A program made the position numbers and the translations under genes. DNA of 64,000 nucleotides from the IMG/VR virus record IMGVR_UViG_2786546892_000007; one strand, 5' to 3'. Origin of the DNA: a virus. Its lineage: Duplodnaviria; Caudoviricetes. This document shows, in pieces, positions 27,831 to 46,096 of the stretch; the stretch's first letter is position 1, and the number at the start of each line of letters is the position of its first letter. The notes under the pieces were generated by a model that had not been told where the DNA came from, did no database searches, and worked only from the letters and a program-made list of their open reading frames with translations.

Positions 27831-28628
27831 ATGGTTGACAGGTCGAGATATATTAAGCAGACCGACGAGGAAATCGTCACGGCGTATCAAACTCTGAAAT
27901 CTGCGGCCAAGGTTGCCAAGCATTTCGGGATTGGCGGGACAACTGTCGAGCGAATACTCAAGCGGAATAAAGTGACGCGCGATGGCAGGTCGCATTACCT
28001 TACTACCGTCCGTGCCTACACCCCCGAACAAGAATTCGAAATCGTCGCCAAGTACAGGAACGGCACTTGGGCTTCTGACCTGATTAAGGAATACGGCGGA
28101 AGCGCGTACTCAATCAATCAGGCGATAGATCGACATGGGGTTACGAAGCGACCAAACCCCTACCCCGATTTGACTTCTGACCAACTCGAAACGATCAAAC
28201 GCCTTCACGCAGACGGCATGGGGCAAACTCAAATATCCATCGAAATCAGACGCTCACAAACCTTCGTGAGCCATGCCATGAAGAAGCACGGGATAGCTCC
28301 CCACCGCCCTATGAACTACACGCACGGCATGTGGAAAGGAGGTAAGCTCCAGTCGGGCAAATATTTCGCCGTCCTGCTGGACCGGAATGACCCGTACTAT
28401 GCGATGGCTCGGTCGGGTGGTTACGTCATGGAACACCGAATCGTCATGGCGCGCCACCTCGGTCGCCCACTAACACCCACGGAAACGGTCCACCACATCA
28501 ACGGCGACTCGACTGACAACCGGATCGAAAACCTGCAACTCCGGCAAGGGAGGCACGGCAAAGGGGCCGTCGCCTACTGCGTCGATTGTGGTTCACACAA
28601 CATCGATCACAAGCCATTACCAGAATAA
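27831..28628 (+). CDS. HNH homing endonuclease with N-terminal HTH repeats
   Basis: WKGG, GYVMEHRIVMARHLGRPL..ETVHHINGDSTDNRIENL. Confidence 0.9.
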   Translation: MVDRSRYIKQTDEEIVTAYQTLKSAAKVAKHFGIGGTTVERILKRNKVTRDGRSHYLTTVRAYTPEQEFEIVAKYRNGTWASDLIKEYGGSAYSINQAIDRHGVTKRPNPYPDLTSDQLETIKRLHADGMGQTQISIEIRRSQTFVSHAMKKHGIAPHRPMNYTHGMWKGGKLQSGKYFAVLLDRNDPYYAMARSGGYVMEHRIVMARHLGRPLTPTETVHHINGDSTDNRIENLQLRQGRHGKGAVAYCVDCGSHNIDHKPLPE

Positions 28629-33127: not shown

Positions 33128-33324
33128 CCGACCCGCTCATCGAGATGATGCGGGACGCCACCTGGAGGCCAGAAGCCGCCCTGGAGCATGAGGCCGACGA
33201 GTTGTGCGAACAGGCGTATTTCGCGCTGCCGTGGATCGGGCGACTCACCGAGGAGCAGCAGGACCAAATCCTGCTCTTTGCCTTCTGCTACGCCGAACAG
33301 CGGTTGAAAAGGATTTTGACATGA
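33124..33324 (+). CDS. Hypothetical protein
   Basis: GAGGTG RBS, ATGA overlaps. Confidence 0.5.
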   Translation: MTDPLIEMMRDATWRPEAALEHEADELCEQAYFALPWIGRLTEEQQDQILLFAFCYAEQRLKRILT

Positions 33325-33770
33325 AAACGAGCCCCGCCGGAATCGCCTTCATTCAGAGCTTTGAAAAGCTTTGCCTCCAGCGCTACCAAGACTCCGTCGG
33401 TCTGTGGACGATCGGGTACGGGCACCGGATTCAACCGGGCGAGGCGTACCAACTGATTTCTCCCGAGCAGGCCGGGGCCATCTTCCTCCAAGACCTGTCG
33501 GTAGCTGAACGGGCCATCAACCAGGCCGTCGAAGTCCTCCTCTCCCAGAACGAATATGACGCCTGCGCGAGCCTTGCTTTTAACGTCGGTGCCGGGAACT
33601 TCGCTCGCAGCACCTTGGTGAAACTCCTGAACAGCGGGAACACGGCCCTCGCCGCCCAACAGTTCCTCCGCTGGGACTTCGCCGGGGGGAAGGAATCGCC
33701 CGGGCTCTGGGGCCGCCGCGTCGCCGAGAAGGTCATGTTTGAAGACGGGGTTTACACCAACCATACCTGA
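33321..33770 (+). CDS. Endolysin, GH24 lysozyme
   Basis: E-x8-D-x5-T triad (FEKLCLQRYQDSVGLWTIGYGH), FNVG, STL, GL..RR.AE. Confidence 0.95.
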   Translation: MKTSPAGIAFIQSFEKLCLQRYQDSVGLWTIGYGHRIQPGEAYQLISPEQAGAIFLQDLSVAERAINQAVEVLLSQNEYDACASLAFNVGAGNFARSTLVKLLNSGNTALAAQQFLRWDFAGGKESPGLWGRRVAEKVMFEDGVYTNHT

Positions 33771-34792: not shown

Positions 34793-35702
34793 CGGCATGA
34801 GCTACCGCCGGCGGATAGACATCAACGGGCGTCGAATTCAGCGCGAATTGCTCAGCGGGAAGGACACAGTGCCGGGCGAGGAAACGGCCCGTCAGCTTGT
34901 CTTTCTCACCGTGACGGGAATTGCGATGGGAGCCTTGGGCCTCGCGGCAGTCGCGACTGTCATGGGCTTGGGGCAGTAGCAACCAGCCGCTGCCAATCGC
35001 ACCGAAGCTCACCTTAAGCGCCCGTGAAAGCCAATTCGGAGCGCACCCCCAACACCTCCGGCTCCGCTCAGACTCAAGGATGACCCGCTAAAACGCCTTC
35101 TGCAGCGCCGCCGTCTCTGCCCCACCATCGGCGTGGGGACAGGACCGCATTTTAGCGCTATCGCGCTTGCGGCCCTGTAACCCCCACACCGACGGCGAGG
35201 CGACGACGACGGGAAGACCGACAGGGCGGAAAATGACGATGTAAAAAGATAAGACCGATGAACAGATGCCCCAGCCGCGCGAAAGCCGGCTGCGACTTTG
35301 TTGTTTCAAGTTATCACTCACCGCTCAAGTGCTGCGAATTGTCTACAGCGGTCGCGAGCTTGTCGTCGTCGAATCCGTCCCGATCGATGGGTCGATCAAG
35401 CAATGCACAGAGGAGGCAGCGAAGAAATGACACGGCGATTATCTCTTCAGAAATTTTAATGGCCAAGGCTGTCTGTTTGGCTGTAGCGACTGTAAATCGA
35501 TGCCACAGAATGTGGCGGCAAGGGCAATTGCCAAGACGGCTCTTTCGGGAGGTATCGCACTGCTCCGGAGCTTTTTCAAAATGTACTTTAAACTTAATTG
35601 GTTTCCAATATCAACTGAATGTATGTTATTTTGGGGGATTACGTATTTGACAAACCCAATCACATGATGTAGTATCGGCCTCATAAACTTAATGAGGTTG
35701 TT

Positions 35703-36614
35703 ATGTCAGTTCTTTCCGCCCCGCATTTTCACAACGAAGAAGCTGCAATCCTGCATCTTGAAAGCATCCTGTGGCCGAACGGAGCAAACTGCCCGCACTG
35801 TGGCAGCGTGGAACGGCTTAACAAGCTAAAGGGTAAGTCAGTACGTCCAGGGCTGTGGAAGTGCTATGCCTGCCGCAAACAATTCACTGTGAAGGTAGGA
35901 ACCGTGTTCGAGTCCAGCCATGTTCCAGTACATAAATGGCTGCAAGCTGCATTTCTTATGGCATCCAGCAAAAAGGGAATCAGCGCCCACCAGATTCACC
36001 GGACATTGGAAGTGCAATACAACACGGCATGGTTCATGGCACACAGGCTCCGTGAAGCAATGCGTGTGCTGAATATCGAGCCTATGGGCGGCGAAGGTTC
36101 CATTGTAGAAGCTGACGAAACCTTTGTGGGCGGTTTGGAAAAGAATAAACACGCAAGGGACAGGAAACACCAAGGTCGTGGTGCCGTTGGTAAAGAAGCC
36201 GTGTTTAGCCTCGTAGAACGCGGCGGCAGAGTCAGATCAACGCACGTTCCGTCAGTGAGCGCAGAAACACTCGGCAAGGTTATGCGTGAGCAATTATATA
36301 CTGACACGCATTTGATGACGGACGATGCAAGGCAATATATTCCACTCGGCAAGCACTTCATGATGCACGAAAGCGTCAATCATAGCATCGGTGAATACGT
36401 GCGTGGTGGAACGCATACCAACACTATTGAAGGCTATTTCTCAATTTTCAAGCGTGGGATGAAAGGCGTCTACCAGCATTGCAACGCAAAGCATCTGAAG
36501 CGGTATTTATGTGAATTTGATTTCCGTTATAACGAACGCGACACTACGGATGCGGAGCGCATGATAACTGCATTACAAGGAATCAAAGGGAAAAGACTTA
36601 CCTATCGGGCTTAA
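35703..36614 (+). CDS. IS1595 family transposase
   Basis: CPHCG...CYACRKQF zinc ribbon, VEADETFVGG, MTDD, HTNTIEGYFS, YLCEFDFRYN. Confidence 0.95.
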   Translation: MSVLSAPHFHNEEAAILHLESILWPNGANCPHCGSVERLNKLKGKSVRPGLWKCYACRKQFTVKVGTVFESSHVPVHKWLQAAFLMASSKKGISAHQIHRTLEVQYNTAWFMAHRLREAMRVLNIEPMGGEGSIVEADETFVGGLEKNKHARDRKHQGRGAVGKEAVFSLVERGGRVRSTHVPSVSAETLGKVMREQLYTDTHLMTDDARQYIPLGKHFMMHESVNHSIGEYVRGGTHTNTIEGYFSIFKRGMKGVYQHCNAKHLKRYLCEFDFRYNERDTTDAERMITALQGIKGKRLTYRA

Positions 36615-36728
36615 ACTGGGCGCAATCAAAAGGTTAAATAGAATTAATCCGTTGCTTAGTTGCAATCAATCCCTTTGCGTCAAGGGTTTCTTTATCATTT
36701 GGCTTTAAAATGATAGATATAACAAATG

Positions 36729-36755
36729 GAATGACGTTCATGCCCTGCGAAGGCC
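36729..36755. repeat. Fused copy of two segments found at 37290-37299 and 37326-37342
   Basis: GAATGACGTT + CATGCCCTGCGAAGGCC exact matches. Confidence 0.85.
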
Positions 36756-36769
36756 GACATTCCCAAGGG

Positions 36770-36845
36770 TGGTGGACCCGACCCGACTCGAACGGGCACA
36801 CGGGACTTAGTAGGAACCTGCTCTATCCAGTTGAGCTACGGGTCC
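36770..36845 (-). tRNA. tRNA-like gene, Arg-type body, anticodon ACT, mismatched anticodon stem, encoded CCA
   Basis: GGACCCG TA GCTC AACTGGATA GAGC A GGTTC CTACTAA GTCCC GTGT GCCCG TTCGAGT CGGGT CGGGTCC ACCA. Confidence 0.8.
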
Positions 36846-36857
36846 ACCGCCGACCTA

Positions 36858-37277
36858 CTAATTCAAAGATGAACTAGCAGGTATTTGTGTGGCGCTTTGT
36901 TTTGGCGCATATTCCACCAGATAGTATCTATCATTTGCCAAAGTGGCAACGCCGGCACCCTTCAATCGGCTGAGTAAAGAAGATACGGAAGCGCGATTGT
37001 ATTTGCCCCCCGACTGCGTAACTGCCTCATCAGCAATTAAGCCGTTTTCCTTGGCGTTTTGCAGATAAGTCAACACATCATACTTAATAGGGATGCGTTG
37101 CTTGCGAGCCGTGGGGTTTTCATTGGCAGCAATAATATCTGCACCTTTAGCTTCGTATTTGCGAATAGAAAACTCTAGGCCAGCCAGCTCGCCTTGCAGC
37201 TTGCTGATTTGCTCCTTTAGTTCGACCTGCCTGTCTCTAAGCGATTGCAAATACACTTTTCCTGACATGCTACTCAT
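36858..37277 (-). CDS. Coiled-coil plus winged-helix-like protein
   Basis: GGAG RBS; heptad N-terminus; NRASVSSLLSRLK..G......RYYL; ends TAG TAG. Confidence 0.75.
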   Translation of the reverse strand: MSSMSGKVYLQSLRDRQVELKEQISKLQGELAGLEFSIRKYEAKGADIIAANENPTARKQRIPIKYDVLTYLQNAKENGLIADEAVTQSGGKYNRASVSSLLSRLKGAGVATLANDRYYLVEYAPKQSATQIPASSSLN

Positions 37278-37301
37278 GTTATAACTCCAGAATGACGTTT
37301 C

Positions 37302-37385
37302 TGCTCCTGACGGGAATCGAACCCGCATGCCCTGCGAAGGCCACTGTTTTAAAGACAGATGCGTCTACCATTCCGCCACAGGAGC
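37302..37385 (-). tRNA. Leu-type class II tRNA with TTA (ochre-reading) anticodon
   Basis: GCTCCTG TG GCG GAATGGTAGA CGC A TCTGT CTTTAAA ACAGT [long variable arm] GCGGG TTCGATT CCCGT CAGGAGC A; no encoded CCA. Confidence 0.82.
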
Positions 37386-37391
37386 AGGCGC

Positions 37392-37419
37392 ATTATAACA
37401 TATATATTCTGACAAGCAA
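37392..37419 (-). promoter_or_regulatory. Sigma70 promoter of tRNA-wHTH-tRNA unit
   Basis: TTGCTT-N16-TATAAT with TG extension, 6 nt before the tRNA 5' end. Confidence 0.65.
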
Positions 37420-37431
37420 TAGGGCATCAAT

Positions 37432-37593
37432 ATGAAAAAGCGTAAGAATGACTCCGTTACGCAACGAACAAAGTTCATAGAAACAGCCCGCGCTCTAGGC
37501 TGTGAAGACAATGGAGACCGCTTTGACGCTGTTGTGAAAAAGCTGGCCGAACAGCCGCCACAGCCGCGCAAGCCCAAGAAGGGCAAGAAATGA
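37432..37593 (+). CDS. 53-aa basic protein of a type often seen beside IS1595 transposases
   Basis: Q..KFIETARALGCED...FD..VKKLA. Confidence 0.65.
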   Translation: MKKRKNDSVTQRTKFIETARALGCEDNGDRFDAVVKKLAEQPPQPRKPKKGKK

Positions 37594-37895
37594 TGCGCTG
37601 GTGCTTGATATTATTGCCGCTGCTCCTAACAGGATGCCTCGAAGATAAAGTGGCGATTCTATCTGAATGCCGATTGAAATACGACCAAGATGGAGCGGGT
37701 CAGCAAGGCGTGATGCTTTGCATGAGTGCTAAGGGTTATGAATTTGAATCAGCATGGCTGTCGCCCCACGATTACACCGCCCCTAATAAAAAATGCTGGA
37801 CTGGAAATGGGTCGTCACCGCTTCCGGTAAATCCTTCTTATGTGTTTTCTGATTGTTATAGCAAAAGATCGCTATGGAGCGTATTTAGCCATTAA
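37590..37895 (+). CDS. Cys-rich lipoprotein
   Basis: Lipobox LLTGC; CMSAKGY motif. Confidence 0.7.
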   Translation: MMRWCLILLPLLLTGCLEDKVAILSECRLKYDQDGAGQQGVMLCMSAKGYEFESAWLSPHDYTAPNKKCWTGNGSSPLPVNPSYVFSDCYSKRSLWSVFSH

Positions 37896-37979
37896 CTAGA
37901 TATTGTGGTGGGTTTGCAATCTACGCAATCCCCATATTTTGATATAAACAATAAACCTGGGCAATGGTTCTCTTACGGC

Positions 37980-38024
37980 CCGGCACAGAATCCGGCACAG
38001 AATAGGTAGCAATCGGCACGGAAT
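37980..38024 (+). repeat. Putative integrase arm-type sites
   Basis: CCGGCACAGAAT x2 tandem plus TCGGCACGGAAT, ~100 bp from att core. Confidence 0.65.
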
Positions 38025-38128
38025 GGCGCTAAAATATGGAAAGTCGCGGCAACTTTCGGCTGCCTCATATGCGGCGGAAAATCAGTGAGAATCGGTGGTT
38101 ATGGCGGAGTGGTCAGTTTCGGACCTCA

Positions 38129-38173
38129 CGACTGAAAATCGCTAGGTCCCCGGTTCAAGCCCGGGACTGCCCA
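38129..38173 (+). other. att core: 3' fragment of tRNA-Phe(GAA)
   Basis: CGACTGAAAATCGCTAGGTCCCCGGTTCAAGCCCGGGACTGCCCA has anticodon loop, T arm and 3' acceptor strand but no D arm or 5' acceptor strand. Confidence 0.85.
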
Positions 38174-38323: not shown

Positions 38324-39556
38324 ATGTCGAAGAAGAACGGGCCGGAACCTTTTTTTCGGCCGAAAAAAAATCGCTGGTACGTCGAGGTCGGCGGTAAGCA
38401 CGTGAACCTCGGCCCGGACGAGGCGCAGGCTCGCGTCCGCTGGCACCAGATCATGGCGGGCACGCCCGCTTCCTCCCTCATCCCCGGCCAACTACCCGAC
38501 GGCGTCCTGGTCTGTCGCGTCATCGACCTGTTCGTCGGCTGGTCGCACAAGCACCGTCCCGGCCGCACGGCCGAGTGGTACCAGAAGCACCTCCAATCGT
38601 TCCTGGATTCGCTGCCCGATGCCGCCACTTTGACCGTCGACCAACTCCGGCGGTTGCACGTCACCAACTGGATCGATGCCCACGGCAACTGGGGAGCAAA
38701 CCACCGCCGCGGTGCCATCACCGCCGTCCAGCGGGCGTTCACGTGGGCGGAGCGCGAGGGGCACATCGCCAAGAGTCCCGTCCGGGGGATCGAAAAACCG
38801 CCCGCCAAACGCCGCGAGCAGGTCCTGACGATCGAGGAATTTCAGTCCCTCTTAGCCCGCATCAAAGACCCGTGCTTCCGCGACGTCCTCGAATTTTGCT
38901 GGGAGACCGGATGCCGGGTGCAGGAGATCCGTCTCATCGAAGGTCGGCATCTCCGGTTCGACCGCGGCCGCGTCGAATTTCCCCCGGAGGAAGCCAAGGG
39001 CAAAAAACGCTGGCGGTTTATTTACCTGACCCCGCGGGCCGAGGAAATCGTCCGCGCCCTGGTCGCCCGTCACAAAGTCGGGGTCATTTTCCGCAATACC
39101 GACGGCAAACCGTGGGACGCCCAGAACTTCAACAACCGCTTCTGCCGGCTCCAGCACCGGTTCGGCCGCGAGGAACTGAAGCGGAGGGGGTTCGTGCTCG
39201 ATCCCGCACGGGTGGCGGAATTCGCTGAGACGCTACACCCGAAGAAAAAGGTGGCGGGAAAAACATTTCCGAAGGCGCCCAACGAGTTGCTCCGCGAAGC
39301 CCGCAAGAAACTTACCATCAAGGCGGCGAAGAAACTCGGGACAAAATACGCCCTGACGACCATCCGCCACAGCTTCGCCACCCGGTTACTCGAAGCCGGG
39401 GTCGACCACATCACCGTCGCCGCCCTCATGGGGCACGTCGACGCCACCATGTTGAGCCGCGTTTACAGCCACGTGGGGGAGAAGACCGACTTCCTGCGCG
39501 TCGAACTGCTCAGGGCTTCAGGCGCATGTGCCGCAGGACAGGTTGGGGCGGCTTGA
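38324..39556 (+). CDS. int: Tyrosine recombinase/integrase
   Basis: ETGCRVQE, K, RHSFAT, LMGH, VYSH catalytic motifs; next to att. Confidence 0.95.
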   Translation: MSKKNGPEPFFRPKKNRWYVEVGGKHVNLGPDEAQARVRWHQIMAGTPASSLIPGQLPDGVLVCRVIDLFVGWSHKHRPGRTAEWYQKHLQSFLDSLPDAATLTVDQLRRLHVTNWIDAHGNWGANHRRGAITAVQRAFTWAEREGHIAKSPVRGIEKPPAKRREQVLTIEEFQSLLARIKDPCFRDVLEFCWETGCRVQEIRLIEGRHLRFDRGRVEFPPEEAKGKKRWRFIYLTPRAEEIVRALVARHKVGVIFRNTDGKPWDAQNFNNRFCRLQHRFGREELKRRGFVLDPARVAEFAETLHPKKKVAGKTFPKAPNELLREARKKLTIKAAKKLGTKYALTTIRHSFATRLLEAGVDHITVAALMGHVDATMLSRVYSHVGEKTDFLRVELLRASGACAAGQVGAA

Positions 39557-42932: not shown

Positions 42933-44567
42933 GTAGCTGTCTATTCTGTACGTACGGGAACGGCCTGAGAATTTCCCAGTTCAGACGCGTGCCCGCTTCT
43001 ACGAGGTAGCCATTTCGACCTTGGGAAAGATGCGATCCAGGATCGAGTCTTCCGGGCGTGGAATCTTCAGTTTGATCAGGAGATCTTCGAAGCAACTTCG
43101 CCCTGCCTCCATCCACCGCGTCACTTCCGCGATCACGCTCGCCAACGTCCACTCCGTCAAGTACAACCGCAGCGATTCCAGTACGCTCATCAGGATCGTC
43201 CGCCGCCGCGCGCCGGCCGGGGTCTTACTCGTCCGACCCGTCTTCCGCGCGTCCGCCGAACCCCGGAGGGTCCGCTCGGCTTCGTTGTTCGTCCCCGCGA
43301 CCGGGGCCGTTGCACCGTTCGGTTGCGTCACCGCCGGGGCCGTTACGAACGGGAACAATTCCTTGGCCAGCATCAACCGCATCAGTTCATTGACCAGCAG
43401 GCGGTAGTCATTCCGGCATCCGTCGCCCGGCGGTTCGTCGGCCAGCCACTGGGCCGAACACAGGTCGTACACCCGCTGTTCCAGACCCTCGACCCGGGCG
43501 GTCCGGCCGGCATCGCTCAACCGGCCGTCGTCCCGTGCCCGGCACGCCGCCCGGTAGATCTCCAGCAACCGGTCGGTGAACGTCCGGTAGCCCTCGTGGT
43601 CGGGTTCCTGCAGGGTCAGCTTAATCGCCTTGCGGAGGAGGTGCGCCCAGCACTTTTGCGCGATCGTGAAAGTCGCGTACACGGCCGCGTCGTCGCTCAC
43701 CAGAACACCCTCGAACGTCTCCGGATCGAGAATGGTCTTGAGCGTCCCGGCATCCTTGTGAACCCCGAACAGCAACACCCGGGCCTGTTCGGACAGGAAT
43801 GCCCACACGCTGTTCAGACTCCACCGGGTCTCGTCCGCGTGGACGACGGCCGCGTGGGCCAACAGGGTACACAGGGTGTCGAACTCCTTCTCCCAGTGCC
43901 GCGACAACTGGCGGAGCAAGGCGTCGGCTTGGGACTTCGGCAGCCGGAGTTGTTGGAAGAACGTCAGCACCTGGCACACTTTGTCGAACGACAGGCCGAC
44001 GCCATGGACCAGGAATGCGATCGCGACGACGATCTCGACCGCGAATTCACTGCGGCCGAACACCCCGGGGATCTGACCGTACTGGTTCTTGGGTCCGCGA
44101 TAGATCTCGTACGCGACCAGGACCGCACGCCCGCTCTCGAACCGCCACACCGGGCGGACGTGAGACCGGCGGCAGTCGGCGGGCGGGATGCCGGCCGGGA
44201 ACACCTTCTCGGTGCGTTCCGCGCGAGCGATCTTGTCCGCGGTCGTGACCCGCCCGTGTCGCTTCGGCTTCTTCCTTTTCTGGGGCTTGTTCGAACGGGC
44301 GTGTTGTCGTTGCTCTTCGGCCCGCATGGAGAACGGTTGATCGAGTTTGGCGGTCGGCGGGGTGGGGAGGTGTTGCTCAAGTTCGCGGATGCGTTGGCGA
44401 GCGGCCAGGAGTTCGGCTTGGAGGGACACGATCAGGTCGACCAGGTGTTCGGGTGACACCTTGCCCTGCCGAACGTCCTGTTTGAGCTGCTCATCCCCCA
44501 TGACGGAAAATTAGCGGCCACGGGCACATCCGGAAAGGCCCCTCAGCTGTACAGAATAGACAGCTAC
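42933..44567 (-). mobile_element. IS66-family element, single-ORF (ISBst12-like)
   Basis: IR GTAGCTGTCTATTCTGTAC; 8-bp TSD GATGCACC. Confidence 0.92.
42999..44501 (-). CDS. IS66 transposase TnpC
   Basis: HADET.W, LVSDD, QKCWAHLLR, TNNEAERTLR. Confidence 0.93.
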   Translation of the reverse strand: MGDEQLKQDVRQGKVSPEHLVDLIVSLQAELLAARQRIRELEQHLPTPPTAKLDQPFSMRAEEQRQHARSNKPQKRKKPKRHGRVTTADKIARAERTEKVFPAGIPPADCRRSHVRPVWRFESGRAVLVAYEIYRGPKNQYGQIPGVFGRSEFAVEIVVAIAFLVHGVGLSFDKVCQVLTFFQQLRLPKSQADALLRQLSRHWEKEFDTLCTLLAHAAVVHADETRWSLNSVWAFLSEQARVLLFGVHKDAGTLKTILDPETFEGVLVSDDAAVYATFTIAQKCWAHLLRKAIKLTLQEPDHEGYRTFTDRLLEIYRAACRARDDGRLSDAGRTARVEGLEQRVYDLCSAQWLADEPPGDGCRNDYRLLVNELMRLMLAKELFPFVTAPAVTQPNGATAPVAGTNNEAERTLRGSADARKTGRTSKTPAGARRRTILMSVLESLRLYLTEWTLASVIAEVTRWMEAGRSCFEDLLIKLKIPRPEDSILDRIFPKVEMATS

Positions 44568-45145: not shown

Positions 45146-46096
45146 GAGCCTGTCTGGGAAGTACTATTTTGATGCAACTCTATATTTAAATGGGGGATAA
45201 CACTTTTTGGGGTCCATGCGATTGAGGATCAATTGAATCGACCGCACTTTAACCATAGATTCACTAGAACTAGTATTTCGTTCGTAGTCCCGACTTAGCC
45301 TGCGGGCGCGACCGAGCCACCCGAAGGTCCGCTCCCCCACCCACCGCTTGGGCAACAGGACGAACCCCTTCGCCCCGTCCGGCCGGCGGACGATGACGAG
45401 TTCCCATCTGAGTTCCGGATGACCGTCCTTCCACCCGTTCAGGGCATGGTTGTGGTACTTCCCGTCGGCCCATACGACCTTCAACCGCGGGTACGCCTCA
45501 CGGTCCAACGATTCGAGCACGGACGGGGCCGCGGCCGCATCGTCGACGTGCCCGGCGGTGACCGCCACGGTCATCAACAACCCGAGCGTGTCGACCACGA
45601 TCGACCGCTTCCGGCCCTGGATTTTCTTGCCCGCGTCATACCCGTTCCCACCCGCATGCTCGGTCCCCTTGACCGACTGACTATCGATGCTCGCGGCGCT
45701 CGGGGTCGGCTCGTGACTCGGAGCATGGACCTCCCGATACCCCTCCCGGAGGACATCCAGGAGGTGTTGCCAGGTGCCGTCATCCCGCCACTGGCGAAGT
45801 ATTCGTACACCGTACTCTTGGCCGGGAAATCGTGCGGGAGCAGGGACCACTGGCACCCGGTCCGGTTCACGTACAGGATCGCGTTCATCACCTCCCGGAG
45901 GTCGACCGACCGGGGCCGCCCTCCGAACCGGGCGGCGGGCAGAAGGGGCTCGATGGTCTCCCATTGGACATCGGTCAAATCCGTCAGATACGGTTTACGA
46001 ACGGGCGCGTCCATGACCTCGCTCCTGAATGATGAAGGAGCGACTAACTTAAAGGAATCTCACGACTTACAGCAAGGGCACTTTTCGGACAGCCTC
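45146..46096 (-). mobile_element. IS5 family (IS1031-like), 951 bp
   Basis: IRs GAGCCTGTCTGGGAAGT / GAGGCTGTCCGAAAAGT; 3-bp TSD TCA. Confidence 0.9.
45164..46014 (-). pseudogene. IS5 transposase, -1 frameshift at ~45793
   Basis: [47 protein letters not shown]; one C short in GCC CAG TGG. Confidence 0.88.

Follow-up and report, generated by a model that had tools for sequence, protein, structure and literature searches.

Why would an insertion sequence (IS) carry transfer RNA (tRNA) genes whose anticodons disagree with the bodies that bear them? The question is raised by IMG/VR virus record IMGVR_UViG_2786546892_000007, a stretch of 64,000 nucleotides (nt) referred to in its entirety as the window, within which a 2.3-kb element of the IS1595 family carries as cargo a leucine-type tRNA with a switched anticodon (tRNA1), a gene encoding a 139-amino-acid (aa) coiled-coil/winged-helix protein, an arginine-type tRNA (tRNA2), and a partial copy of tRNA1 (the 'core mimic'). 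Judging by its genes and ends, the element can be classed as an IS1595-family transporter IS with a conserved, self-contained cassette as cargo. This cassette is known from about two dozen other bacteria, and the named carrier loci all belong to the Alphaproteobacteria. That it acts as a self-regulated recoding cassette, inserting leucine at non-leucine or stop codons, is a proposition to which we give an even chance.

A word-based search of 5.8 billion proteins returned four matches to the 139-aa protein, and a profile search of 1.84 billion representatives returned 1276 at E ≤ 1e-3, 352 at E ≤ 1e-10, and 37 at E ≤ 1e-30. Scanning public contigs for the invariant motif of the family yielded nine genome loci, 13 metagenome loci, and one viral locus, the last duplicating one of the metagenome loci, which leaves 22 distinct loci (related loci are cited here by numbers with the prefix L). 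Directly upstream of the protein gene and on the same strand, ARAGORN called a whole Leu-type tRNA of 82–90 nt with a long variable arm in 19 of the 22; in L013 and L021 the contig starts inside the upstream tRNA, bringing the total with a tRNA to 21. Winged-helix homologues without flanking tRNAs, or copies with ordinary leucine anticodons, had been named in the preliminary description of this locus as findings that would refute it; the search gave a tRNA at 21 of 22 loci and not one leucine anticodon, which strongly supports its view that the cargo is real, under selection, and undescribed, and not a product of decay. Of 401 alphaproteobacterial genomes sampled independently, 11 match the protein profile at E ≤ 1e-5. 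The close homologue from this sample, L032, likewise has a tRNA upstream, with anticodon CCU. At L036:1372-2225, a distant homologue (E 3e-10) has two tandem 89-nt Leu-type tRNAs (UGC) downstream, inside a tandem duplication; because these follow rather than precede the protein gene, the link between protein and tRNA reaches a second arrangement. It is mainly a trait of the close subfamily, since no tRNA was found within 1.5 kb at nine of 11 loci of distant homologues (E 1e-14 to 6e-6). Carrier genomes usually hold a single copy of the cassette.

Exactly two tRNAs, tRNA(tta) and tRNA(act), were detected by ARAGORN in the 64-kb window, and the Rfam tRNA model also calls both, as first described, with 58.3 bits for tRNA1 and 44.9 bits for tRNA2 (gathering score 29). 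The window copy of tRNA1 has a long variable arm, A73, and an anticodon stem with one U-U mismatch. Across an alignment of 20 whole tRNA1 sequences, A73, A14, A15, and G18 are invariant, the variable arm is long, and the acceptor and T stems keep the 7/5 geometry, with CCA encoded in 15 of the 20. Covariation supports the fold: paired cells amount to 98.4%, and changes on both sides are seen in 17 of 22 pairs, values matched by none of 500 shuffles, with slid controls reaching 36–46% paired. The family model R2 gave the window copy 91.8 bits versus 68.5–79.2 for the five genuine tRNA-Leu genes of the same genome, and its next-best matches in six genomes were tRNA-Leu at 26 of 27 loci, the remaining one being without an assigned type. 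We assign the body of tRNA1 to bacterial tRNA-Leu (type II), as had been proposed from the window copy. A73, A14/A15, and G18 are determinants of leucyl-tRNA synthetase (LeuRS) in E. coli.

None of the 23 tRNA1 genes in the anticodon census bears a leucine anticodon (NAG or YAA). Eleven anticodons occur among them, mostly of missense types: UUA (stop UAA; window, L005, L007, L016), CUA (stop UAG; L023), UCA (stop UGA; L020), UGA (Ser; L006, L024), AGA (Ser; L008, L022), UCC (Gly; L004, L009, L010, L014), ACC (Gly; L003, L011, L018), AGG (Pro; L012), UGG (Pro; L019), UGC (Ala; L015 and two copies in L036), and CCU (Arg; L032). Position 34 is U in 15 genes, A in six, C in two, and G in none. The loop around the triplet is always 7 nt long, with U33 in 18 and A37 in all 20 of the aligned sequences. 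Divergence per site amounts to 0.60 in the anticodon versus 0.33 in the rest of tRNA1, and to 0.20 versus 0.08 in the five closest pairs. When the anticodon states were mapped on the tree of the partner protein, 12 label changes were counted over 20 rows. Well-supported sister loci bear unlike anticodons (UGA in L006 and UCA in L020; UUA in L007 and CUA in L023; UCC next to ACC), and UUA, UCC, and ACC are each found in at least two separate parts of the tree. Since the decoding loop is kept around a free triplet and the same triplets recur independently, this pattern is what would be expected if the anticodon triplet were the selected variable.

The partner protein was modelled by AlphaFold from a 23-sequence alignment (mean predicted local distance difference test, pLDDT, 79.6) with a 48-residue helix at residues 3–50 and a winged helix at residues 64–120, the latter composed of helices 64–75, 82–88, and 95–108 and strands 111–114 and 117–120. 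VIA-align superposed this domain on many winged-helix domains with Z 8–9.4 and a root-mean-square deviation of about 2 Å over about 60 residues. The matches include DNA-binding (IdeR, ArsR-type, Fur) as well as RNA- or Z-DNA-binding domains (SelB, Z-alpha), and no family stands out. On the strength of this model, the coiled-coil/winged-helix architecture claimed in the preliminary description holds, and the predicted fold can be taken as settled as a winged helix. Members of the alignment are 27–41% identical, the family-invariant RASVSSLLS falls in the predicted recognition helix, and the isoelectric point (pI) exceeds 8 in 21 of 23. Pfam, NCBIfam, and PADLOC contain no family for the 139-aa protein; Foldseek gave no match at E ≤ 0.001 and only generic winged-helix regulators above 1e-3, while a PDB sequence search returned coiled-coil noise only. 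The Atlas offered unnamed clusters and weak leads (AbiEi_4 in 31% of one cluster; an RNase R winged helix, 0.88), which are not relied on.

The second tRNA is an optional component. Its family model R1 scores the window copy at 88.1 bits and finds tRNA2 in 10 of 23 loci (window, L005, L006, L007, L008, L013, L020, L021, L022, and L023), all of them within the group that has A as the last base of the tRNA1 anticodon. Among 18 loci giving the best genuine R1 matches, 12 were tRNA-Arg, three Met, two Ile, and one Trp, and we assign the body to the tRNA-Arg type, again as proposed earlier. A20 is invariant in the seven aligned copies, and C35 with U36 or G36 is kept in seven of the 10 (ACU in the window, GCU in L005, L007, L021, and L022, and UCG-type anticodons in L008 and L023). 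A20, C35, and U36 or G36 are determinants of arginyl-tRNA synthetase (ArgRS). In this small sample, the anticodons fit charging by ArgRS, and GCU and ACU also fit the reading of serine AGY codons as arginine. Insertions in the D loop were observed in L022:5362-5452 (18 nt) and L006:5457-5569 (38 nt).

A further component, overlooked in the preliminary description, is the partial copy of tRNA1 that closes each module, located 3' of the protein gene or, at loci with a tRNA2, 3' of the latter as well. In the window, positions 36739-36755 are identical to the tRNA1 variable arm (37326-37342) at 17 of 17 nucleotides, the 10 nt following the arm copy repeat the tRNA1 trailer, and 36729-36743 resembles 37290-37304; the copy comprises neither the T arm nor the acceptor end. 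To score such copies, each tRNA1 was aligned to the 250 nt past its operon at 21 loci, with 200 shuffles. The score lay above all 200 shuffles in 14 of the 21 loci, and the best match fell at about tRNA1 positions 40–60 in 18 of the 21. Among 26 genuine tRNA-Leu loci treated in the same way, none passed, and the highest score was 19, compared with 20–50 in the modules. The sequence of the variable arm varies among loci and is copied faithfully within each, and the mimic tracks the differences in the tRNA1 arm between the close pairs L004/L014 and L009/L010. In the group with Gly or Pro anticodons, the mimic begins with the D-stem word GACGC, has a tetraloop-capped hairpin in place of the anticodon arm, the stem of which covaries among loci, and carries a short U-rich word in place of the T arm. 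In the mimic of L032 the anticodon arm is complete and bears another triplet, and the mimic of L019 spans tRNA1 positions 7–56. A role as terminator was considered and rejected: in single-sequence folds, the mimic does no better than shuffles (z −1.9 to +0.4 in 10 of 11), and its U tracts are short. It may provide the protein with a binding site or decoy, represent the scar of a recombination, or act as donor when anticodon arms are exchanged.

The order of the cassette is promoter, tRNA1, ribosome-binding site and protein gene, optional tRNA2, and truncated tRNA1-core copy. Compared with the tRNA–winged-helix gene–tRNA unit proposed at first, the upstream Leu-type tRNA recurs, whereas the downstream one does not always accompany it. 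The promoter ahead of tRNA1 had been called near-consensus, which holds for its −10 region (TGT-TATAAT at 37400-37392, with a perfect TATAAT at 37397-37392 that ends 6 nt before tRNA1 position 1) but not for the −35, which is poor (TTGTCA at 12-nt or TTGCTT at 16-nt spacing); the site was not listed by the consensus scan. Among 21 related loci, 11 have TTGAC at 35–38 nt before tRNA1 position 1. The protein gene of the window has GGAG 8 nt ahead of its ATG, and in the loci examined a GGAG-type site precedes a protein start located 17–40 nt after tRNA1, the exceptions being L008, where a TTG start follows at 113 nt, and L019, where the first in-frame ATG follows at 5 nt. Because the protein start follows so closely behind tRNA1 and the TTGAC and TATAAT positions lie just ahead of it, tRNA1 and the protein mRNA most likely form one transcript, the start of which coincides with the 5' end of the mature tRNA or lies a few bases from it at most. 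The words ACGCAA/TTGCGT occur upstream of tRNA1 in 13 of 21 loci versus 22 of 694 background windows, with enrichment of TTGCG/CGCAA words; an operator is not claimed here, as the enriched words partly coincide with the −35 element itself. GACGC is not enriched upstream of tRNA1 (eight of 21 loci versus 254 of 694 background windows).

With regard to the vehicle, the window transposase is of the ISXO2/IS1595 DDE type with a zinc ribbon, matching DDE_Tnp_IS1595 (PF12762; 1.9e-38), Zn_ribbon_IS1595 (PF12760; 1.2e-13), and NCBIfam transpos_IS1595 (NF033547; 1.8e-59, 201 bits, cutoff 75). Together with the terminal repeats, these matches bear out the IS1595 element initially reported. The IS1595 family typically makes 8-bp target duplications; flanking 8-mers are indeed present, matching at seven of eight positions and not exactly. 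The proposal that the IS acts as a transporter gained support from L005, where another IS1595-family element encloses tRNA1, the protein gene, tRNA2, the mimic, and a transposase 39% identical to that of the window within its own 39-nt inverted repeats. An IS1595 transposase adjoins the cassette in eight of 23 loci (window, L003, L005, L014, L018, L020, L022, and L023), these related transposases being 26–55% identical to that of the window, and L008 contains fragmentary transposase open reading frames (ORFs). In L007 and L019, a tyrosine integrase occupies the place corresponding to the transposase. The cassettes of L007 and L023 are 80% identical over about 1.05 kb, the former beside an integrase and the latter beside an IS1595 transposase; because such near-alike cassettes adjoin unlike vehicles, the comparison indicates that the cassette is a module moving between backbones. 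Neighbouring large ORFs at loci lacking a transposase gave no NCBIfam match, and tblastn with the L004 protein found no homologue in 72,556 plasmid and 50,697 phage records. In addition, eight of 24 loci, the window not among them, contain gene X (Table 1), which encodes a coiled-coil and winged-helix-like protein of about 146 aa with no Pfam family; hhalign matched it weakly to the main protein family (probability 65%, E 6e-5).

Table 1. Features of the IS1595-family element and its cargo in the window, with the positions of gene X at related loci.
Feature	Coordinates	Strand	Basis or remark
Left flanking 8-mer TTATTTTG, putative target-site duplication	35626-35633	.	read from sequence
Left terminal inverted repeat	35634-35658	+	repeat search: 25 nt, 80% complementary to right repeat
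Promoter-like site of transposase, TTGACA-17-TAGTAT, partly in left repeat	35647-35675	+	consensus scan 10/12
IS1595-family DDE transposase, 303 aa, N-terminal zinc ribbon	35703-36614	+	Pfam, NCBIfam
Partial tRNA1 copy, variable arm and trailer	36729-36755	-	repeat search
tRNA2, Arg-type, anticodon ACU (reads Ser codon AGU), 3' CCA encoded	36770-36845	-	ARAGORN, Rfam
139-aa basic protein, pI 9.4, long helix/coiled coil and winged helix (predicted)	36858-37277	-	AlphaFold, fold searches
tRNA1, Leu-type, anticodon UUA (reads stop UAA), ochre-suppressor type	37301-37386	-	ARAGORN, Rfam; mature tRNA taken as 37302-37385
Promoter-like region abutting tRNA1, TG-extended TATAAT	37392-37419	-	read from sequence
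53-aa basic ORF, divergent from tRNA1	37432-37593	+	ORF list; no Pfam or NCBIfam family
101-aa ORF, lipoprotein-type signal, lipobox LTGC	37590-37895	+	ORF list; no Pfam or NCBIfam family
Right terminal inverted repeat	37909-37933	-	repeat search, paired with left repeat
Right flanking 8-mer ATATTTTG	37934-37941	.	agrees with left flank at 7/8 positions
Gene X	L003:1601-2041; L014:72-527; L024:303-770; L022:4248-4673		
Gene X	L018:5762-6199	-	
Gene X	L008; L010; L011		

The remaining genes of the element, the divergent ORFs for a basic 53-aa protein and a lipoprotein, exist as previously described, but they lie outside the conserved unit, with no tblastn match in any of the related loci. PADLOC run on the four proteins of the element returned a single match at chance level (E 0.044). 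The G+C content of the element is 45–51% versus 60–67% nearby (also 47% versus 63%), and the element is single-copy in the 12.36-Mb assembly. The 139-aa protein was found in none of 60 relatives searched, nine same-genus genomes included. This absence and the low G+C content point to the element as a recent arrival in its host. It lies between a prophage-like stretch, which includes a phage lysozyme gene (33204-33770), and a tyrosine integrase gene (38324-39556). A search with the DNA of the whole element yielded nothing beyond distantly related IS1595 transposases and tRNA-Leu genes of the ordinary kind. A segment of 228 nt of the transposase gene (35938-36165) was present without differences in a contig of an unrelated 2025 sequencing run; because the piece is identical, the same IS, or a very close one, is taken to be present elsewhere.

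The surroundings are rich in mobile DNA, with an HNH endonuclease/helix-turn-helix protein (27831-28628) upstream along with the lysozyme, and an IS66-family transposase (42999-44501) and a DDE_Tnp_1 transposase (45164-45964) downstream. Just beyond the right end of the IS, the 12-mer CCGGCACAGAAT occurs in exact tandem duplication at 37980-38003 (repeat search). A truncated tRNA-like stretch at 38108-38173 on the plus strand (Rfam tRNA 22 bits, E 0.29, D arm missing) is located 150 nt 5' of the integrase, a 410-aa protein encoded on the same strand, and looks like the attachment-site remnant of an integrated element. The segment 38129-38175 is common to several contigs of the probable source run, which suggests that the genome contains more than one copy of the fragment. 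The assembly measures 12.36 Mb compared with 4.8–5.9 Mb for the nine same-genus genomes searched, and its stated contamination is 3.8%. Elsewhere in the same genome, outside the window, C4:281499-283412 contains at least 12 tRNA-model matches in about 2 kb and looks like a tRNA gene array.

When compared to known systems, the closest are the allo-tRNAs, tRNAProX, and the nev-tRNAs, which are alike in pairing one identity with the anticodon of another; the cassette is set apart from them by its chassis, its partner gene, its built-in mimic, and its vehicle. tRNAProX comes with a dedicated paralogue of prolyl-tRNA synthetase (ProRS), and nev-tRNAs have anticodons for Gly and Ile and receive leucine. 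Siguier et al. are said to have reported in 2009 that transporter IS of the IS1595 family carry passenger genes. The window element resembles these in its zinc-ribbon DDE transposase, terminal repeats, 8-bp duplication, and passengers inside the repeats, and neither a tRNA gene nor this winged-helix protein was reported as IS1595 cargo in the literature as represented by titles and the starts of abstracts. Similarly, a full-text literature search found no Leu-type anticodon-switched tRNA accompanied by this protein or located on IS1595, its scope leaving aside bioRxiv supplements and the figures of PMC5389517.

The likenesses and differences that follow refer to excerpted parts of the articles cited. 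Allo-tRNAs and polycistrons of irregular tRNAs are known from Acidobacteria and soil metatranscriptomes (Mukai et al. 2017, PMC5389517). Allo-tRNAs share with tRNA1 the long variable arm and a very wide range of non-cognate anticodons, nonsense ones among them, and they lie near transposon-related and toxin-antitoxin genes (PMC5389517), the counterpart here being 11 anticodons among 23 genes and an IS1595 transposase or integrase at 10 of 23 loci. Their companions are irregular GCU/GGU tRNAs with extra loops (PMC5389517), and tRNA2 has GCU and GGU forms and D-loop insertions in L022 and L006 that recall the 'E-loop' irregular tRNAs of soil metatranscriptomes. In contrast, allo-tRNAs have 12-bp acceptor branches of 8/4 or 9/3 and mostly serine identity (PMC5389517), whereas the tRNA1 consensus is of the canonical tRNA-Leu type with seven acceptor and five T-stem pairs and covariation in both stems. 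The sequences in the supplement of that article are unlike tRNA1, the words 'Transposase', 'helix', and 'Leu' are absent from the supplement text, and the excerpted article text, figures aside, contains no winged-helix partner and no core mimic (PMC5389517).

A 2024 review of mistranslating tRNAs gives tRNAProX (tRNAProA, tRNAProN, and tRNAProT of Streptomyces and Kitasatospora) as the sole bacterial dual-identity tRNA under its heading (PMC11415595). Both tRNAProX and tRNA1 are natural bacterial tRNAs that join one identity to another's anticodon, and A34 is frequent in both (six of 23 tRNA1 genes). Unlike tRNA1, tRNAProX has proline identity, anticodon-dependent charging, and a body that is not type II, and the review excerpt does not describe it on insertion sequences or with a winged-helix gene (PMC11415595). 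The nev-tRNAs of nematodes resemble tRNA1 in being class II (with a V-arm) and having a Leu-type body and anticodons of neither Leu nor Ser (Hamashima et al. 2012, PMC3333845); however, they are eukaryotic and chromosomal and, in the excerpted text, come without mobile element or partner protein, while tRNA1 is bacterial and mobile. Stop-recoded phages are comparable to the window IS in that a mobile element supplies a nonsense-suppressor tRNA, but their tRNA serves a recoded genome, mostly with TAG read as Gln (PMC10879173), whereas the genes of the window IS use ordinary stops.

If the locus is indeed a recoding cassette, tRNA1 would be leucylated by the host LeuRS whatever its anticodon; bacterial LeuRS does not read the anticodon of its tRNA. 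The charged tRNA1 would then decode a non-leucine or stop codon at a low level, which in the window would amount to readthrough of UAA with leucine, and tRNA2, with the ArgRS determinants A20, C35, and U36 kept, would insert arginine at AGU. The winged-helix protein, co-transcribed with tRNA1, might feed back on the promoter or bind the tRNA core and its mimic, and would thereby keep the dose of a potentially harmful tRNA low at any copy number. Possible benefits include suppression, variation under stress, addiction, and defence. Among the roles put forward in the preliminary description, miscoding tRNAs under control of the winged-helix protein are favoured over decoys or processing punctuation by the retained 7-nt loop context and identity elements.

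Several observations count against the recoding cassette. The window copies are imperfect, since CCA is not encoded in tRNA1 and the anticodon stem of tRNA2 has two non-standard pairs; among the related loci, L007 has a damaged tRNA1 with an altered T loop and a shortened D loop, and L017 retains only a remnant of tRNA1, seen by eye. Three tRNA2 copies (L006 with GGU, L020 with an unclear anticodon, and L013 with an ambiguous UCG-type one) misfit the ArgRS rules or have odd loops. No RNA run containing the element was found among sequencing runs. The presence of the RNA-binding winged helices of SelB among the structural matches (Z 8.5–9.0) leaves DNA binding by the protein unestablished. The protein gene itself neither avoids the codons of its partner tRNA nor differs in stop use across 19 genes; for example, L015 (UGC) contains five GCA and four GCG codons, and L010 (UCC) three GGA and three GGG. 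Furthermore, the mimic is unexplained by a pure decoding model and hints at a role involving RNA and protein or recombination. Finally, several irregular tRNAs are charged but unused in translation, or are inactive, according to the excerpted text of Mukai et al. (PMC5389517).

Some of these observations would suit a reading in which the tRNA-like RNAs do not decode at all and are structured ligands of the coiled-coil/winged-helix protein, whether as part of a ribonucleoprotein, as regulatory RNA, or as decoys for enzymes that attack or modify anticodon loops, with the triplet varying as a specificity determinant for, or a target of, something other than the ribosome. We regard this as possible, although rather doubtful. 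It would account for the truncated core copy in each module, in which the arm is exact while the anticodon loop is lost or has given way to a tetraloop (the copy scores above all shuffles in 14 of 21 loci compared with none of 26 controls), and for the way the copy follows changes of the tRNA1 arm; the SelB matches, the absence of codon avoidance, and the precedent of charged but unused tRNAs also agree with it. Nevertheless, a ligand or decoy has no need of A73, of CCA (15 of 20), of the tertiary nucleotides of the D and T loops, or of a strict 7-nt loop with U33 and A37. A nuclease decoy would be expected to copy the whole anticodon arm of its target, while related loci differ by single triplet bases only, and the cassette has neither a nuclease nor a modifying enzyme as a conserved neighbour. 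The notion that the tRNAs serve as processing punctuation, with RNase P and 3'-end enzymes cutting at them to release and stabilise the winged-helix mRNA and the anticodon left unconstrained, appears improbable. The short distance from tRNA1 to the protein start (17–40 nt in the loci examined, except L008 and L019) and the tRNA or tRNA-like core 3' of the protein gene in all modules examined would suit such a function, but the promoter abuts tRNA1, leaving little or no leader to remove, and tRNA2 is missing in 13 of 23 loci. A free loop should, moreover, vary in length and include leucine anticodons, which occur in none of the 23 genes, whereas the same anticodons recur independently and the LeuRS and ArgRS identity elements are kept.

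Decaying pseudogenes or recombination scars, that is, attachment-site remnants hitch-hiking beside the regulator gene of a mobile element, seem very improbable. The damaged copies in L007 and L017 could be taken in this sense, and a partial tRNA1 copy at the cassette end with an adjoining integrase in L007 and L019 resembles the tRNA-fragment repeats left by integration. Even so, compensatory changes in 17 of 22 pairs between loci whose proteins are 27–41% identical are incompatible with neutral decay, the duplicated part is the middle of the tRNA and not the 3' end usually duplicated by integrases, and the whole unit lies inside the IS inverted repeats in both the window and L005. A broader proposal, which we put forward as a speculation and think unlikely in full, is that of a mobile genetic-code module, in which a tRNA-Leu chassis, re-aimed time and again at stop, Gly, Ser, Pro, Ala, or Arg codons, would be held in check by a protein recognising the tRNA core and its RNA mimic. 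The RNA would act as toxin and the protein as keeper, employed by insertion sequences and integrative elements for addiction or for sabotaging the translation of invading DNA, and the partial copy would possibly serve as a silent donor of anticodon arms.

Natural tRNAs that misread the code are known from few cases, namely tRNAProX, the allo-tRNAs, the nev-tRNAs, and the CUG yeasts. If the reading as a recoding cassette is true, they would be joined by a bacterial leucine-inserting family with a defined gene partner, promoter, and vehicle, be it an IS or an integrative element. The repeated switching of anticodons on a conserved chassis, with the same anticodons arrived at independently, looks like selection on the codon that is hit. 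Since the carrier of locus L004 is a cultured isolate, Nitratireductor alexandrii Z3-1, the question is directly testable. A leucine chassis with interchangeable anticodons and a regulator could also provide parts for genetic-code engineering. Insertion sequences would then be able to move decoding capacity and not only genes, and the cassette may be a mobile means of altering how the genetic code is read.

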